Below, one piece after another: positions 53,527-61,560 of a DNA stretch of 64,000 nt. Numbering within the stretch: position 1 is the first letter of the stretch; the number at the start of each line of letters is the position of its first letter. The stretch is from Massalongia carnosa (taxonomy: Eukaryota), in the NCBI GenBank assembly GCA_965645245.1, contig OZ287072.1:558001-622000 (forward strand), read 5' to 3'. The position numbers and the translations under genes are program-made. The notes beneath the pieces are model-generated. The model was not told the DNA's origin and made no database searches. It saw nothing but the letters and a program-made list of their open reading frames with translations.

Positions 53527-55669
53527 TCAATCACGGTTAATGACCCTTAAACTCCTTCTGGGATTCAGCAACACCCCCACAAAACTCGGCTCCACCCCCC
53601 TCATCAGGTCCTCGCTGCTGGAATTAGCAGTGCTGTTTCCACCAATAGGCGGATGAACTCCACCCGGCAAAGGGCGAATGCTCGAATAAGCGCTCGCACC
53701 CCCCGGGATGCTACTCCTGACGGCGCTGCCGGCGTCTGTACCTCGGTGGTCGGATGAGCCCTCGGAGGTTAGGAATGCGGCTTTCTCGGCTGGGTGGCCG
53801 GGTCCACCAGCAGCAGCCCGTTGAGTCATGGCAACGTGGGCCTTGTAGAGCGCTAGCTGGCGGCGGTAAACCCAGGCGCAGAAACCGAGATAGGCGGCCA
53901 GAACCGCAAAACAGCCAGCAATGACACCCGCAATGATAGCGGCAATGTTTGGGCCGTGATGATTATTGGCAGAAGACGTGCCATTAATGGATGACGTGCC
54001 TGTCTCGGTGACTACGGCTCCGTTGGCACCGGTGACTGTATAGGTGATGGGCTTGCCGGTAGCCAGGGGGCCTTGGGTGGCTGACTGAGCCGGCGCCGTG
54101 ATAGTTGCGCCTCCACCCCCCTGGCCACCTATAACATCTTGCACAGGTTTAGGGACTTGGTAGCCATAGCTGCCACCGAGAGCCAAAGGATCGTTTTCTT
54201 GCGCCAGCTGCTGGTTCAGGGTATTGCCCCCGCTCAGGGCGGAAAACTGATTTTGCCATGTAAGGCTCGAAGCGGAAAATACGTAGAACCCGCTATCACA
54301 GCTAAGATTGGGACCGGTGTAGCCCCCTATCACCACAATTTGCCCATCCCAGATATTGCAGGTATGTCCCACTCTTGCTGGTGGTACTGACTGGTTTTTG
54401 GTGTCGACTTCAATCCACGTAAAGCTAGGAATGGTTAGTATCCACATATCATCGTACTGGATCTGCTGCCCGTAAGGCAAGAGATTTTGACCTCCATATA
54501 AATAAACATTGGTACTTGAGCCGTCGGGTGCCGAAGCTGCCACGGCACAAGGGTTTACACGAAGGCTTGGGTATTTGCCGCTGGTTGACTGCTTGTACCA
54601 GGTGGAGCTGGCAATATCGTAGACGTCTATAACATTCATTTGAGTCTGCCGTAGCCAAGGATTAGAGAGGATCTCGACGGGAGATAATTCTTAGACTTAC
54701 AAAGGACGTGTTAGTTCCCCCGGCTAAGCTTAAAATAATCCCGCTGTCACCAAATCCAGGGACGTATACAAGCACACCGTCTGCTCTGTTGGTAAAGGTA
54801 GCTGTGTCCTGTATTCCCCCTTGGGTAATGTTTCTCCAGATGCCATCAGCTCCAGCAGTCTTGCCGCCGCTCAAGCTTTTGACGCCATTGTTGGTATAAC
54901 CTGGGAAAGTGAATTCTATCATGGATTTAAGATACTGGCGAGAGACTTGCTTCGTCCATCCAGGGGTGGTATAGTGATCAAGATGACCACCAAAATACCA
55001 TCCTTTGCCGAGTTCGGGAACGCTGATGCCAGCCCCCTCGGCAGCTTGCTCCACAGGTTGATTTCCATTATCGCTGTTGTTGCCGGCGGATGTCTTAGGG
55101 TTTTGGTGTTTACTCCATGATGACTCTTTGATGTTATACTCCCACAAGGAATACGGGTCGGGCGTCGCTTCTGGCGAGTCCGACACCTCACCCCCATATA
55201 AAAACAGTGAATTATAGGAGTTCCACAGATAGCCATTTGCTACTGCGGGAGGGCCTATGGGCTGCGGTAAACCAGCAAGCTTGGGGGCGGATATGTCCCA
55301 GCCTTCAGTCAATGGAAGTGCCACAAAGTCGTTGTTCCAGGTGTCCTGGTCTTGTCCGGACGAAGAGATCGAATGTCCTCCGTAAATGTACAAAGTCCCA
55401 TTAACCACGGCGCTTTGGTGGCTCCATCGATTACATACGTCCGTAGGGCTATTGTCTCGTCTGATGAAATTCCCGTTGATGCCGCCTTTCCGGATCAGAT
55501 ATGCGCGAGTCCCTAAGAAACTAGGTCCGGAGCTGTTTATAAATGGCATTTCGTAGACAATGGGCATTAAGGCTGCCATCAGCACCGCCAGGGTGTACAA
55601 TCGAAGTATTGAAGAGGGCCTGCATAGCGAGATGTTTCTATTGACGACATTGTTCCTGGCCGGCAACAT
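53527..55669 (-). CDS. Kelch/galactose-oxidase-like beta-propeller single-pass membrane protein (start uncertain; frame open to 56053)
   Basis: VCNRWSHQSAVVNGTLYIYGG and repeated YGG..W motifs. Intron 54646-54700. TM helix IAAIIAGVIAG..; C-terminus LLNPRRSLRVINRD. Confidence 0.88.
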
Positions 55670-57000
55670 TGGCACAGGTTGTGTACGTGGGCGTGGTAGC
55701 GATCCAGATTCAGGCTGTGGTGCCTCGCTTCCACCAGATGCTCTCTGGGCGCATAGACTTCGGGATCTACCCTTGGTAAAGAGGGTAGTTGATGTTGCGG
55801 ACCGACGTTTTTTATCCTTCGAGGTTGTATGTGATCCAAGCTCTTTTCTCATCATTGCCTCGCTTGATAAGCCCGTGTTAGGTCGGGTAGCACTTGAGTG
55901 TTGTCTTAAACAGAATCGGTTGCATATGGTGTATTCTTCGGAGTGCATTGAGTAGTCCGTCGGGCAAAGCTGAAGAGAATTACCAAAAGCCGTGCAATCG
56001 ACGATCAGTGGGTCGTTACGTTGACCCGTGGATGGAACACAAACCAGAGACACAATCTACCAAGACTTGAAACGAGAGGTTCCACCCTTGTGGTTTCCTT
56101 CGACACAAAAGCATGTTAACAGTTCGTCACCACGAACGTAGAGCGGAGCCATCGCCTTAGGGAAAAAATGTTACCCAAGCCATCAGCCGAGTACGGGGGT
56201 TTTGGTGGTTGGCCAGTGTTTTGGGGTGTATGACGCAGTGGCGACATGCGTGTTGACCGTGTTTCTGTTGGCGGTAGTTTCGCCGCTAGAAAGCGCAATG
56301 GCCATGTTTGCCCAATCCAATGCGATGTTGGAGAGGCTACTCTGGCACTCTGGCTCCCTGCCTTGAATCCATTGATGGGACCTTGTTAGTCCTCCAATTT
56401 TAAAAGACGGCGAAATGCATGACAGGGAAAGGCATTTGCACAGTATGCCGAAACAGGTATTTCCCCCTTGCTCAGGGTCTCTATTTCGACCTCAGTAGAT
56501 CTTGCCCTAATTCATGCCAAACCAAACCCTAATGTGGACAGTGAACAGACGATGTAGATAGATTGAGATAATTCAGGTCGTCTTTACCGAAACAACCCCG
56601 TCAGTCCATCCTTTTTGCCTCCTTCTAACGGGTTTTCGCTCATGTCTTAAAGGGACTCGCAAATGCTTGGTGCCCCCGTTATGCAACAATAACAACACCT
56701 GGTCACTACTCAATGGCTTTAGTTAAAGCACCCGAATGCAAATTTCGGGTCGCAAGGTGCTCTCTAATCCGAATGTTGAGAGAAGACCATCAAAAAGGGG
56801 GTGACTGGATCAAGACGGCGAATCCTCCCGGAGTTGATCAAGGACCGATGATTGATAATCCATTTCGGCTCGTTATCCGAGGCCATGCAGCTTCAAATAT
56901 GCACTTCTTCAGACCATAAAAACTTGCAAAATTTCCCCGCCTGAGCTCCCATTCACACATCCTGCGAGCGAATCTGGCTTTCCATCAACAACTTCTCAGA

Positions 57001-57732
57001 ATGACTAATTATACTATCTCTATCATCTCTGACACTGTCTGCCCATGGGTGAGTCGTTGGGCCCCCCCCCTCTCTTTTTTCTCTCTCAAAAACAACACTA
57101 AGCTTCTGCAAAACCAACAGTGCTACGTTGGTAAAAAAAATCTCGACCGCGCCATCGCCCTCCACAAGTCCCGCCATCCAACCGACACCTTCACCACGAC
57201 CTGGCACCCCTATTACCTTAACCCTAACCCGCCCATCCCCAGCATCCCTAAACGCCCCTTCTATGTGACAAAGTTCGGCGCCCAGCGCGCCGAAGCCATT
57301 TTCGAGCGGTTGGAATCCGTCGGCCGCGACGTTGGCATCGCCTTCAACTTCAACGGCCGCACGGGCTCCACGCGAGACTCGCACCGCTTGATCCAATTGG
57401 CCGGTACCAAGGGCCCCGAAGTGCAGGCGAGAGTGGTGGAGGAGTTATTCGAGGCCTATTTTGAAAAGGAGGAGGACATCAGCGCTCCTAACGTTTTGCA
57501 GACGAGAGGCCTAAAGGCGGGCTTGGCGGAGGAGGAGGTGAGAACGTGGTTGGAGAGCGGAGGAGGGGGGAAAGAGGTGGATGCGGAGGTGGAGAAGGCT
57601 CGGAGGAGGGGCATCAGCGGAGTGCCACACTTTACCGTGCAAGGTGAGTTCGAAATTGCAGGGGCAGAAGCGCCGGAATCGTTTGTGCGCGTGTTCGAGA
57701 AGGTGAAGGTGCGCGAGCAAAGGGGGGTTTAG
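57001..57732 (+). CDS. DsbA/FrnE-like thioredoxin-fold protein
   Basis: SDTVCPW|CYVGK after removing intron 57049-57120; TRDSHRLI; cis-Pro motif GISGVPHF. Confidence 0.95.
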   Translation: MTNYTISIISDTVCPWVSRWAPPLSFFSLKNNTKLLQNQQCYVGKKNLDRAIALHKSRHPTDTFTTTWHPYYLNPNPPIPSIPKRPFYVTKFGAQRAEAIFERLESVGRDVGIAFNFNGRTGSTRDSHRLIQLAGTKGPEVQARVVEELFEAYFEKEEDISAPNVLQTRGLKAGLAEEEVRTWLESGGGGKEVDAEVEKARRRGISGVPHFTVQGEFEIAGAEAPESFVRVFEKVKVREQRGV

Positions 57733-58495
57733 GAGGTGCAGGTGGCCATGTAATTGACTCTTGAACCTTGAAATGGGGGAAGAAATGTGCAGTCCGGAAG
57801 GTATCTGTAGAACGAAATGAACGCTTTTGAGTGCTCCATATTTCCCAAATATCGGTCCTTCCCTATCCTTTTTCCCCTTTCCCCTTCCTCTAGAAAACTC
57901 CACCAGCTTCCACATGCGAGGAAACCCACCCCGGATACAGAATCCCACGCAAACCCCTTCCCTCCTCCCTCCCGCCCCTTTTTCTTCCCATCCCATCCCA
58001 TTCATCCTCCCCCCTCCCCCCCTCCACCCTCCCATTAAACACCCAATCCGTACCCTATCAAACAAACCACAACCCGCTCACTGCACCGCATCGTAGAACT
58101 ACCTATCTGACCGGGAACGGTTTGGTTGGATCTGATCTTTAATCTCTAATCTAGATACGATTTTATATAGGGGGTTTAGATAAGGGAGGAGGAAGGAGGA
58201 GGAGAGGAAGAGAGGAAGAAAAACAGAAGGAGAAGAAGAAATGATGTTCGAGAAAGATAATGTAAGGTGATGGAAGTTGTTCGGTGATAGGGACAGGGGC
58301 TCTAATCCCCAAGCGGCTGAAGCCTAAGTAGGTATCTTGATTAAACCAACTAGACCTGCGGAATAACGCAAGCAAGCAAGCAATAAGCACGCAAGGAAAA
58401 GCCCATCAGCATCCCCCACGCTCCTTGCTTTCAAAACCCTACTCCCCCTCCCAGGCCGCCAACCAAAAACACAACCCCCCCCCCAAAAGCAATCC

Positions 58496-60091
58496 CTACC
58501 TCCGTACGCACAAATCACTTCTCAAAACCCACTTCTCCCCATCCAGCACTTCCCGGCCTTCATGCAAGAGGCAGTCCTGTCCATGCTTGTGCAAAAGCGC
58601 CATGCCCACTTCTGGAGCCACGACAACGGGCTCTATGCTGCCTTGCTGCAACTTCTGCTTGCTGTGCGATTTTCCAGGGGGGCCGGGGTCAGGGTAGAAG
58701 ACGGTTTCGCCGCCAGTGCAGGAGGTGAGGTAGAGGAGGAGAGTCCAGGTTGTTTTGGCGGGGGTTTGGTCGAGGATGAGGAAATTAGAATCGTCATCTG
58801 TGTGGGGGGAACTGTTAGGGTGAGAGGTATTTGGATTGGAGGGGTTGGGTTGGGACCAAAAGGAAGGTATGGTAAGGAAATAAAAGAGAGGTGAATGGAA
58901 CCGGAGGAAATAGAGCAGAAGAAATCAAAGAAGAGAAATGCAAGAACCAAGGAGTGAAACCCGTCCCCTACCTGTCGTTATGCCACCCATCATCTTCAAT
59001 ATAACCATCCCTCACTATAGCCATCCGATCCGGGACAACCCATAGCAGAAAAACCACCACGACAGTCGTCCAAGGCGAGAATGCAAGGGAATGCGACGGA
59101 AACTGCACCTCCTCTTTCAACGCTTCCTTAGGCACAAATATAGGCATGACCACATCATATAGGTCCTCGATAAGTTTTGGGGGTTCTTCCACGATCCAGT
59201 CAAAATCAATGATGATGCCGTACGCAACCCAGCAGCAGCCGTAGAGCGCGAGGAGCACGCTAAGTATGATGTATACGAAACTGCAAATAGCTGAGGCCCA
59301 CGGCGAAGAGGACAGATACGGTGTGAGGGAGTTGAAGATAAAGGCTGACATTTTTCCTATGGTTTCTTGGTGGGATGATGGGGAGCAAGCAGGGATTTTG
59401 GAGAAGGTTTCCGATAGGAGAAATAAAAGGAAACAGAAGAAAAAACCTGTTCATGCAAAGCACATGAACGGCCTGAAAGCGTCTCGAAAGGAAAAGTGAC
59501 GAAAAATAGAGCATCATAATATTTGCAGTGACAATATTGCGACCGAAATAAACAATAACATTGAAAAAAACAACAGGAATCGCACCTACAGTGTTGACCA
59601 AAAAACTGGCCCTTTCCATATCGATAAACCCGTATCCTGGGATTCAATCCACACACATTCCCACCCCACGCTCTCGTCCTATTCTCCCTGCTTCCCTCCT
59701 TATCATCATCTTCCTCTTCAACACTACCTTTCCCCCTATCATTATTAACAAGCGCCTCCAGCCCTGTCTCCCTCCACAACCTCTCTGCAAACTCCGCATC
59801 GTGCACCTCAAACCGATCATTGACGCGCACCGCGTCGCCGTCTTTCGGCTTTACGGGCGTCGTAACGAGTGGCAGCGTGGAGAGGAATTGGGTGTAGGTT
59901 TTACAGAGTGTAGAGGTGAAGAGGTTTCGGATAAGAATAACTTGCTCTGGGAGAAGGGTTTCGAGGTAGAGATCGACGGGGGGGACAAGCGGGGAGAGAA
60001 CAGGCCAGTTGGGTACAAGGTTTGCGGTTGAGGTCGACGTAGGTTTACGCTTTTTGGTGGGAGCTGGGGTTTTGGGGGGTTTGGAAGGCAT
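58496..60091 (-). CDS. 2OG-Fe(II) dioxygenase (prolyl-4-hydroxylase-like)
   Basis: GLNPRIRVYRY..FFGQH-Y-DDS across intron 58798-59589; TWTLLLYL, GGETVFY and LHEGREV..KWVLRSD. Confidence 0.93.
58968..59351 (-). CDS. Putative 127-aa membrane protein nested in the oxygenase intron
   Basis: Uninterrupted ATG-to-stop ORF with AAAAATGT start context, two hydrophobic segments and a non-repetitive sequence. No homology recognised. Confidence 0.45.
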   Translation of the reverse strand: MSAFIFNSLTPYLSSSPWASAICSFVYIILSVLLALYGCCWVAYGIIIDFDWIVEEPPKLIEDLYDVVMPIFVPKEALKEEVQFPSHSLAFSPWTTVVVVFLLWVVPDRMAIVRDGYIEDDGWHNDR

Positions 60092-60449
60092 CAAGGAATG
60101 TTTGCTGCAGAGAACGAAGTAGTAGACTTTTAATTGCAACCCTGCTTCTGTAGGCAAAAAAATATCAGGTCAAATACATCCCCGTTAGCCCTCTATCTCA
60201 TTAGACGATCTCAATTAAATGCATAACGGTTATAGAATCAACATGTGATCTCGTGATTGTACTGTAATGGTCAACAAGAACGTTTTATTGCTTCTTAAAT
60301 AAACGATTCTCATGAGCTTCGAAGCAAAATGACTACATACAGCTTATATTAGGTACATGTTGCTATATAGAGACCTGGAACAGAAATGAATCCTAGCTTG
60401 CCTCCACAGCTATAACCTGGGAATTTCTTTGTATAATTAAAGGGCACAA

Positions 60450-61560
60450 ATAGTAAGAGGCCGTGGTAATTTCCAGATGCATCTTCTAGTGCCTCGCCAT
60501 TCATGATATCATGAATAGGCAGATATAGCTATTCCAGAAAAACGGCAGCGTATTCACGCAATGGCTCAACATAAATGGTCGCGACATACCTTCGCAATAC
60601 CGTCCATTTATGTGTCTTCAAAGGATCACGGGTTGCATCGTCTGTCGCCATATGCTGAGAGTCAAATATCAGATCAGGCTCTGTGCCCGCTTTAAGTTAG
60701 AATCGGTATGACTCCAGCATACAGGAACTACTTCGTAATCCGTGAAGTTCGAAGTACTAGATACGATTAACTAGATTATGAACCAGGGCTATACGAAACA
60801 CCCTAAGGATCATATCCCCTTTGAACGAGTCGTGTTCCAGTTCGTGGATTGTTTGACACAACAATCTTTTGAACAATCCAAAGTCTACTAAACAACTCAC
60901 ACTCTCAATGACACCTAACCCCGAATTACTCCTGGAGGCTTTATTTGCTCAATACTCATTCAACAATGGCTCTTCTACTGCCGTTAAAGCAATCTATCTC
61001 CTTTTTGCTTTCCAACGTCCTATCCTCAAGCCAGGCAAAAGTCCTCTGGGCGCCGCCATATATATCTCGCATACGGTTGAGTTGTTTCGTTCTGTTTGTA
61101 TTATTCTTTTGATCTATAGATACTGCGTCAATACATCGTCTGTCACAGGAGGATTTGGAGAACTTGTTGACGGCAGGTCTGGGAAGGAGCTGAGCCCGGG
61201 ACTCAATATATTGATGAGAAGGCCTACAGATTTCGTTGCTGAGGAGGTGATGTTCGAGCAAATTAACCGCCTTAAGAGAAGTTAAATTGGTGGAAGTTTG
61301 CGCCACTCCAAGAATCTCCAGGCACGTATATGAGATTGCTGGTACTACCAACATCGCAGATAAATCCTCCGGGGTAGCAGGAGGCAGAAGGAGGGTAAGG
61401 TACATAGCCATAGGTCTCGCAAAACTATATGGTGGAGTCAATAACAACGCTCCTGGAACAGCTTCTCAACTTGCGAGCTTACGTTTAAGCCAAACTCACA
61501 TTCGCCAGCATCGCTATTCTTTAGAAAGCAGGCGGGTATACTGCTGCTTGTGTCACATAA
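60450..61560 (-). pseudogene. Degenerate HET (heterokaryon incompatibility) domain gene
   Basis: PAISYT and CIDAVSIDQKNNTNRTKQLNRMRDIYGGAQRTFAWL match the HET pattern (ALSY.W / WIDA.CI.Q..Q...M..IY..A..V..WL), with the conserved Trp residues lost and the ORF broken. Boundaries approximate. Confidence 0.7.

Follow-up and report, generated by a model that had tools for sequence, protein, structure and literature searches.

The window, a 64,000-nt stretch of the Massalongia carnosa genome (contig OZ287072.1, positions 558,001 to 622,000), carries on its minus strand a gene predicted to encode a 2OG-Fe(II) oxygenase, with the HxD codons split by an intron at a conserved position. HxD...H is the iron-binding triad of these enzymes. 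Exon 1 (59590..60091, minus strand; 224 homologs) comprises 167 codons plus a T and ends with GGT CAA CAC T at 59590, including the His of HxD. Exon 2 (58496..58797, minus strand) opens with AT GAC GAT and holds the Asp of HxD and the distal His in LLHEG. The 792-nt intron between them (58798..59589, minus strand) is of the GT-AG type (GTAGGT...CTAAC...CAG), with its donor GTAGGT at 59589 (D1), and the CTAAC branch point motif (58814..58818, minus strand) is the only CTRAC or CTAAT motif within its 792 nt. An earlier note on this DNA had claimed that HxD is restored only when this intron is removed and that unspliced RNA gives no enzyme. The sequence agrees with both claims: the joined exons encode a 267-aa protein with GQH-Y-DDS, in which the iron-binding H167-Y-D169 spans the junction, and without splicing the frame ends after 244 aa with the Asp missing. 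Neither half of the window oxygenase, scanned singly against Pfam, gave a match. The spliced sister protein P0154, which shares 114 identical residues with the 167-aa exon 1 of the window, matched PF13640 with 37.3 bits against a curated cut-off of 27 and showed a weak likeness to prolyl 4-hydroxylases (best E 0.08).

Other features of the window lie on both sides of this gene. A DSBA-like thioredoxin gene (56920-57732, plus strand; PF01323, E 3e-27) is convergent with the oxygenase, and its intron (57049-57120), which splits the motif CPW/C, measures 72 nt as opposed to the 792 nt of the oxygenase intron. A HET-domain fragment upstream of the oxygenase (60956-61465, minus strand; PF06985, 34.8 bits) looks decayed, and an exon of a Kelch/beta-propeller protein occupies 54662-56056 (minus strand). 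The segment 62100-62500 is repeated: depth went up, contigs branched, and G>A and C>T differences were found in all four runs.

The intron, the ORF nested in it and exon 2 each had at least one match in the 52-Mb genome of the species; the nested ORF had at least one protein match there and is single-copy. A transposon or dispersed repeat insertion, the latter named in the earlier note as evidence against its proposal, was rejected, as the intron is single-copy, has no terminal repeats at its ends and lacks repeat hallmarks. An intron hosting a structured RNA (snoRNA, riboswitch) was rejected as well, since no Rfam family was matched in 58300-60300 up to E 10; folding of the whole 792-nt intron gave a z score of -1.44. 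Contigs from the four runs followed the genome across the intron, showing neither a junction nor variants in it, and are uninformative on splicing.

We then compared the orthologous intron in 80 metagenome loci retained out of 205. The intron lay at the same phase-1 position in the oxygenase of relatives. The earlier note had proposed a comparison of its length, which proved to be 48-106 nt in 24 of the 80 loci. Another 18 loci had an intron of 468-735 nt, 16 had none, and in the remaining 22 it was not resolved by the search pattern. In 17 of these 22, exon 2 begins at most 90 nt from the exon-1 match, and there is therefore no space for a nested ORF. Unspliced homolog gene calls read GQH-C-K/R/E/M, which is evidently the print of an unspliced CAC T/GT, and annotated homologs read HYDD or HYDE. 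P0154, from a contig of 1.8 kb, is a 289-aa ORF without interruption and reads GQHYDES; P0153, which belongs to its cluster and agrees with it at 176 of 179 exon-1 residues, runs on into the intron. We infer that P0154 is a spliced cDNA. Homology and this spliced sister demonstrate, at the level of sequence, the joining of D1 to 58798, and the host intron is by all indications real and old. NCBI models of the oxygenase from Letharia, Letrouitia and Mycoblastus (P0030, P0032 and P0058) are 156-177 aa long and stop at or before the host donor, which suggests mis-annotation around a long intron.

Ascomycete introns are mostly shorter than 100 nt. Nearest splice sites are paired in Ascomycetes, according to the accessible part of PMC6616335, and for both reasons a conserved protein gene in an ascomycete intron is unexpected. 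The window intron nevertheless contains a same-strand ORF of 127 codons (58968..59351, minus strand) with the start context GGAAAA-ATG-T; its length, the A at -3 and the presence of two hydrophobic segments are as the earlier note had described. Segment 1 (aa 15-50; 59202..59309, minus strand) includes the conserved LY-x-x-x-W (Y37, W41), and segment 2 (aa 88-107; 59031..59090, minus strand) the conserved S92, W94, F101, W104 and P107. The encoded protein is acidic (16 D/E, 6 K/R) and two-pass by hydropathy. Its conserved positions are of the Trp/Pro/Tyr/Phe packing type and no catalytic-type residues are conserved, which argues against an enzyme; it may most plausibly be a small endomembrane adaptor or accessory subunit, a reading in which we place middling confidence. 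A same-strand ATG ORF of at least 127 aa occurred in 4.9% of Markov-shuffled introns (n = 5000), so that the length is weak evidence by itself. The argument for a real ORF, as opposed to a chance one, lies in conservation.

A full HMMER scan of 1.84 billion representatives returned 12 matches, namely the protein itself, one tandem-repeat protein (P0125), which was removed from the homolog set, and 10 homologs of 99-276 aa with 29-38% identity and E values of 2.8e-9 to 4.4e-4. The full scan was needed to find these homologs, as a word-index search with the nested ORF alone matched only itself; a profile search enlarged the set. The family shares the motifs LY-x-x-x-W, E-x-PP and S-x-W...F-x-LW-x-LP[DN]. 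Searches of Pfam, PDB, PHROG and ESM Atlas gave no usable match: the best PDB hit had E 1.5, PHROGs gave a single match (E 0.07) for one of 16 proteins, and ESM Atlas returned nothing usable with P0001. Three bacterial ESM Atlas clusters at 0.90, obtained with P0127, were rejected as too weak, with low shared counts.

Several database proteins join the family to the oxygenase. P0126 is a single reading frame from the nested ORF through into oxygenase exon 2, and P0149 is one from oxygenase exon 1 into the nested ORF. When its frame is shifted, the intron read-through tail of P0156 encodes residues 1-11 of P0139 (null maximum 7 of 200), with the P0139 start located 233 nt past the donor, compared to 239 for its counterpart in the window. 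Nine ORF/exon-1 pairs sit on contigs of equal size. Contexts of this kind linked 5 of the 10 representatives to the oxygenase, the other five being not assessable. Among the 18 long introns, which stand for about seven lineages and not for 18 independent cases, the family member was intact in 10, broken in 5 (L027, L049, L060, L061 and L079; the L049 intron is 563 nt), weak in 1 and missing in 2 (an identical pair). The weak copy, in L039, scored 11.7 bits, exceeding all 300 shuffles, with an hhalign E of 0.001 and probability of 22%. L060 and L079 carry different stops (TAA and TGA) at one and the same codon.

Substitution rates showed that the nested frame is constrained. The dN/dS of the nested ORF was 0.30 for L002/L015 (bootstrap 0.17-0.49; shifted frames 1.41 and 1.18) and 0.48 for L014/L025 (bootstrap 0.28-0.75; shifted frames 0.67 and 1.14), with host-exon values of 0.11 and 0.24, respectively; for the window it is not computable because synonymous sites are saturated. 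These values indicate purifying selection on the nested protein in relatives. Loss of frame conservation, which the earlier note had named as evidence against a gene, was not what we saw, as the frame is kept in relatives. The locus might still be a decaying relic, a former gene now silent in the window species: stops and frameshifts interrupt the copies in L060/L061/L079 and L027/L049, and the dN/dS of the broken pair is 0.82. However, the window ORF is intact from the sister-aligned Met through all five invariant positions, and the G of the second donor described below (D2), gone from the broken copies, where the position reads ATATGT, is present in the window. We therefore consider a relic unlikely.

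In a quick oxygenase tree, with the misframed L060 row disregarded, the window gene fell in a 28-row set (SH-aLRT 100) that also took in every named Lecanoromycetes row and the majority of the ORF-linked ones. L014/L025 and L039 were outside this set or unstable. The nested family looks restricted to lichen-type fungi, perhaps older, and looks unannotated and lost in some lineages. The nested gene most likely originated within the oxygenase intron of a lichen-type ancestor, and some lineages can probably do without it. No non-coding ortholog could be aligned in outgroups, whose introns are 48-106 nt or absent, and fast divergence could hide a source of the family outside the clade. Long orthologous introns with the junction TAC and no trace of the ORF were found in L011/L012 (3494-3961; 468 nt) and L033/L059 (about 300 nt). 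The nested-family score of the L011 intron was no better than those of shuffles, and L011 clusters with Aspergillus in the oxygenase tree; older loss or unrelated expansion is possible for these introns. As described in the accessible part of PMC7005711, de novo transmembrane genes from T-rich DNA resemble the nested gene in being orphan, transmembrane and moderately constrained, and a putative de novo origin of the nested gene in pyrimidine-rich non-coding DNA would fit this pattern. However, those are young intergenic yeast ORFs, as opposed to the old, deeply diverged intronic family at this locus.

The start of the nested ORF showed signs of a genuine initiation site. The start Met aligned across the sister clade (MSAF, MASF, MAST, MASV), and TTGCACAATG at the nested start was identical in L002 and L015 although their leaders are only 56% alike (ORF 77%, tail 39%). 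Directly upstream in the window lies a putative core promoter or 5' leader (59352..59451, minus strand) that is ATG-free, pyrimidine-rich and 10% G; the upstream ATGs, at intron positions 29, 73, 76, 125 and 136, all precede it. The L002 and L015 leaders likewise contain no ATG, no YAG and 10% G. The frame of the nested ATG relative to exon 1 differs among loci, the exon-1 frame terminates upstream of it in 7 of 7 loci, and no branch motif was present upstream of the nested ORF in the window, L002 or L015. The nested ATG thus appears to behave as a genuine start codon. Homologs, the same intron in relatives, dN/dS below 1 and the conserved start codon bear out the nested small gene proposed in the earlier note and lend support to the internal promoter that it had suggested. 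In a different arrangement, a cassette exon or in-frame retention would fuse the N-terminal half of the oxygenase to a membrane anchor. P0149, in frame from exon 1 into the nested ORF, is consistent with such a fusion, as are AG sites in the window intron (positions 141-143 and 231-233) whose phase would suit it. It is, however, at odds with the missing upstream branch motif, with the lack of YAG in the L002 and L015 leaders, and with start codons that are conserved while the frame to exon 1 is not, and we regard it as extremely unlikely.

The earlier note overlooked a second donor at the last codon of the ORF, and with it the link of the nested unit to exon 2. This putative donor, D2 (CAG/GTAGGG, phase 2; 58966..58971, minus strand), lies within the last codon and was the best U1 match among the 44 GT sites of the window intron, with a pairing energy of -11.2 kcal/mol versus -6.2 kcal/mol for D1. 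In a position matrix of 19 host donors, it fell outside the top 4. Splicing from D2 to the acceptor at 58798 would remove a putative 174-nt terminal intron (58798..58971, minus strand; 72% pyrimidine), with the branch point motif common to both splice routes. The predicted product is the same 127 aa, and the window protein is identical with or without the splice, because the stop would come from the A-TGA at the start of exon 2 (58794..58797, minus strand). These four bases go to complete the Tyr and Asp of HxD in the host frame and would serve as the last base plus stop in the nested frame. Directly before D2, CATAACGACAG (58972-58982, minus strand) combines an AG/GT site with a branch-like motif; two-step splicing through it is possible in the window species only, the site being unconserved in other loci.

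A phase-2 GTnnG at most 12 codons from the stop was found in 6 of 8 loci, 47-174 nt before the acceptor; the 12-codon search window was set after data inspection, and the counts come from related, non-independent lineages. Such a span is evidently an ordinary intron size here. In all six of these loci, a phase-2 donor spliced to the phase-1 acceptor would place a stop at the junction. D2 was missing in L002, read GC in L015 and varied among the near-identical alleles L015, L018 and L019. The consensus GTRWGY (given in the accessible part of PMC6616335) was matched in the tail of 4 of 8 loci and at one site in about 700 body codons, and was unmatched by the window D2 (GTAGGG), the window D1 and the L039 D2 (GTTCGT). 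Many database homologs end in x-Y-V plus unconserved residues, in W-stop or in K-stop (exceptions P0129 and P0131), as expected for the peptide print of a D2-like donor. P0128, from a 937-nt contig, ends in an unspliced YV-stop, and no database homolog was found whose sequence requires splicing at D2. The Tyr codon at the junction has to be TAT to give A-TGA, and it is TAT in all of the ORF-bearing lineages (8 of 8). For comparison, TAT makes up 16 of 33 other Tyr codons from six of those lineages and occurs at the junction in 11 of 20 short-intron loci; the signal is only modest because the lineages are non-independent. Additional synonymous constraint toward the end of exon 1 gave no clear signal, with too few codons.

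The 3' end of the nested unit bears on where its transcript could terminate. The L015 ORF stop falls within the branch motif and only 10 nt short of the acceptor, and the 3' part of the window intron is 17% A with no AATAAA-like hexamer. Intronic polyadenylation, one of the routes considered in the earlier note, is for these two reasons unlikely. The same observations weigh on a self-contained nested gene, for which the intron would have to hold the poly(A) site as well as the promoter. The window offers such a gene 170 nt between the genomic ORF stop and the acceptor, and its ORF is complete unspliced. However, only 10 nt are left in L015 and 47-76 nt in the tails elsewhere, and the window tail carries no A-rich signal. 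We judge this arrangement very unlikely.

The locus is probably best explained by an intronic promoter that gives rise to an alternative first exon, which would share the last exon of the oxygenase in another frame. The start site, the use of D2 and the localisation and role of the protein are predictions of this model, made from the observed intron, ORF, synteny and selection in relatives. An upstream promoter would produce the oxygenase pre-mRNA, in which D1 (59589) is joined to the acceptor 58798 and HxD is built. Another promoter, located within the 5' part of the intron, would give a short transcript beginning just upstream of the ATG at 59351 and encoding the two-pass membrane protein that is under selection in relatives. 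This transcript would use its own donor D2 with the host branch point and acceptor, as the conserved sequence suggests, and exon 2 (58496..58797) would supply it with one base, the other-frame TGA, a putative 3' UTR and a poly(A) site. The mutually exclusive products foreseen in the earlier note would then hold per transcript.

Both proteins could also come from one pre-mRNA with an alternative 5' splice site, where D1 gives the enzyme, and D2 or retention gives a dead truncated oxygenase plus a reinitiated membrane ORF. With nearest-site pairing in Ascomycetes (accessible part of PMC6616335), D2 should compete well; in the window it also outpairs D1 with U1, and the frame that reads on into a retained intron ends 5 nt short of the nested ATG. 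By the same pairing rule, the nearer donor should win on the oxygenase pre-mRNA, which is a puzzle for the intronic-promoter model as well as for the alternative donor. Long-range pairing of the intron ends that would favor D1 was found in none of 9 introns (p 0.31-0.97). However, the stop-start spacing is not conserved, with the frame stopping at intron positions 6-15 in five loci and at 108 in one, and the exon-1 frame overlaps the nested ORF in P0156 and P0151. Furthermore, reinitiation after an ORF of 170-240 codons is poor, such an mRNA is a decay target, and the leaders resemble 5' UTRs. We consider an alternative donor on a single pre-mRNA rather unlikely and retain the intronic promoter as the working model.

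Structural parallels to the intronic-promoter arrangement exist in several known systems. Nested intronic genes of animals and plants usually lie in introns of several kb, in many cases opposite in strand to the host, and have their own 3' end. They resemble the present case in having a complete coding sequence within one host intron, whereas here the gene is on the host strand, fills an intron of 500-800 nt and apparently relies on the host acceptor and 3' end. Aspergillus nidulans brlA reportedly has an intragenic promoter with a second transcript. S. pombe wtf and F. graminearum ZEB2, as covered in the accessible part of PMC9604717, likewise use an intragenic downstream start to make a second transcript. 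However, wtf, ZEB2 and brlA yield shorter versions of the same protein, and the second protein here is unrelated. Stwintrons (accessible part of PMC6616335) are similar as complex fungal intervening sequences with two donors, but if the D2-to-acceptor segment were removed first, no acceptor would remain in 5 of 6 loci. A stwintron was rejected here, as no outer intron has its donor, branch or acceptor interrupted by D2.

The closest comparison is with CDKN2A (p16INK4a/ARF), which, in the accessible part of PMC9604717, combines an alternative promoter and first exon with a shared exon read in another frame to give unrelated proteins. According to the same part of that source, a dual-frame shared exon has been characterised only for CDKN2A and p21, with fungal reports unavailable. 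If the putative internal start and D2 are used, the locus would work like CDKN2A. Two differences are apparent: the second first exon would sit within an intron of its partner gene, and all that the nested protein would take from the shared exon is one base and a stop, with no dual-coded protein sequence. More tentatively, the locus may form a switch in which two donors compete for one acceptor, the choice of promoter or donor determines whether oxygenase or membrane protein is made, the stop within the HxD codons fixes TAT, and the nested gene is old and intron-born; we regard this extended reading as possible but doubtful. No description of the locus was found in the literature covered, mainly the main texts and abstracts of open-access papers.

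These data point to a new family of membrane proteins that looks confined to lichen-type fungi and is encoded by a nested intronic gene invisible to gene finders. The nested locus may explain truncated oxygenase annotations in some lichen genomes. It is also a candidate fungal case of one exon common to two unrelated proteins and offers a direct donor-competition test. If the switch is true, the locus would be the first of the CDKN2A type in fungi and would provide a natural test of near-donor skipping by an intron-definition spliceosome.
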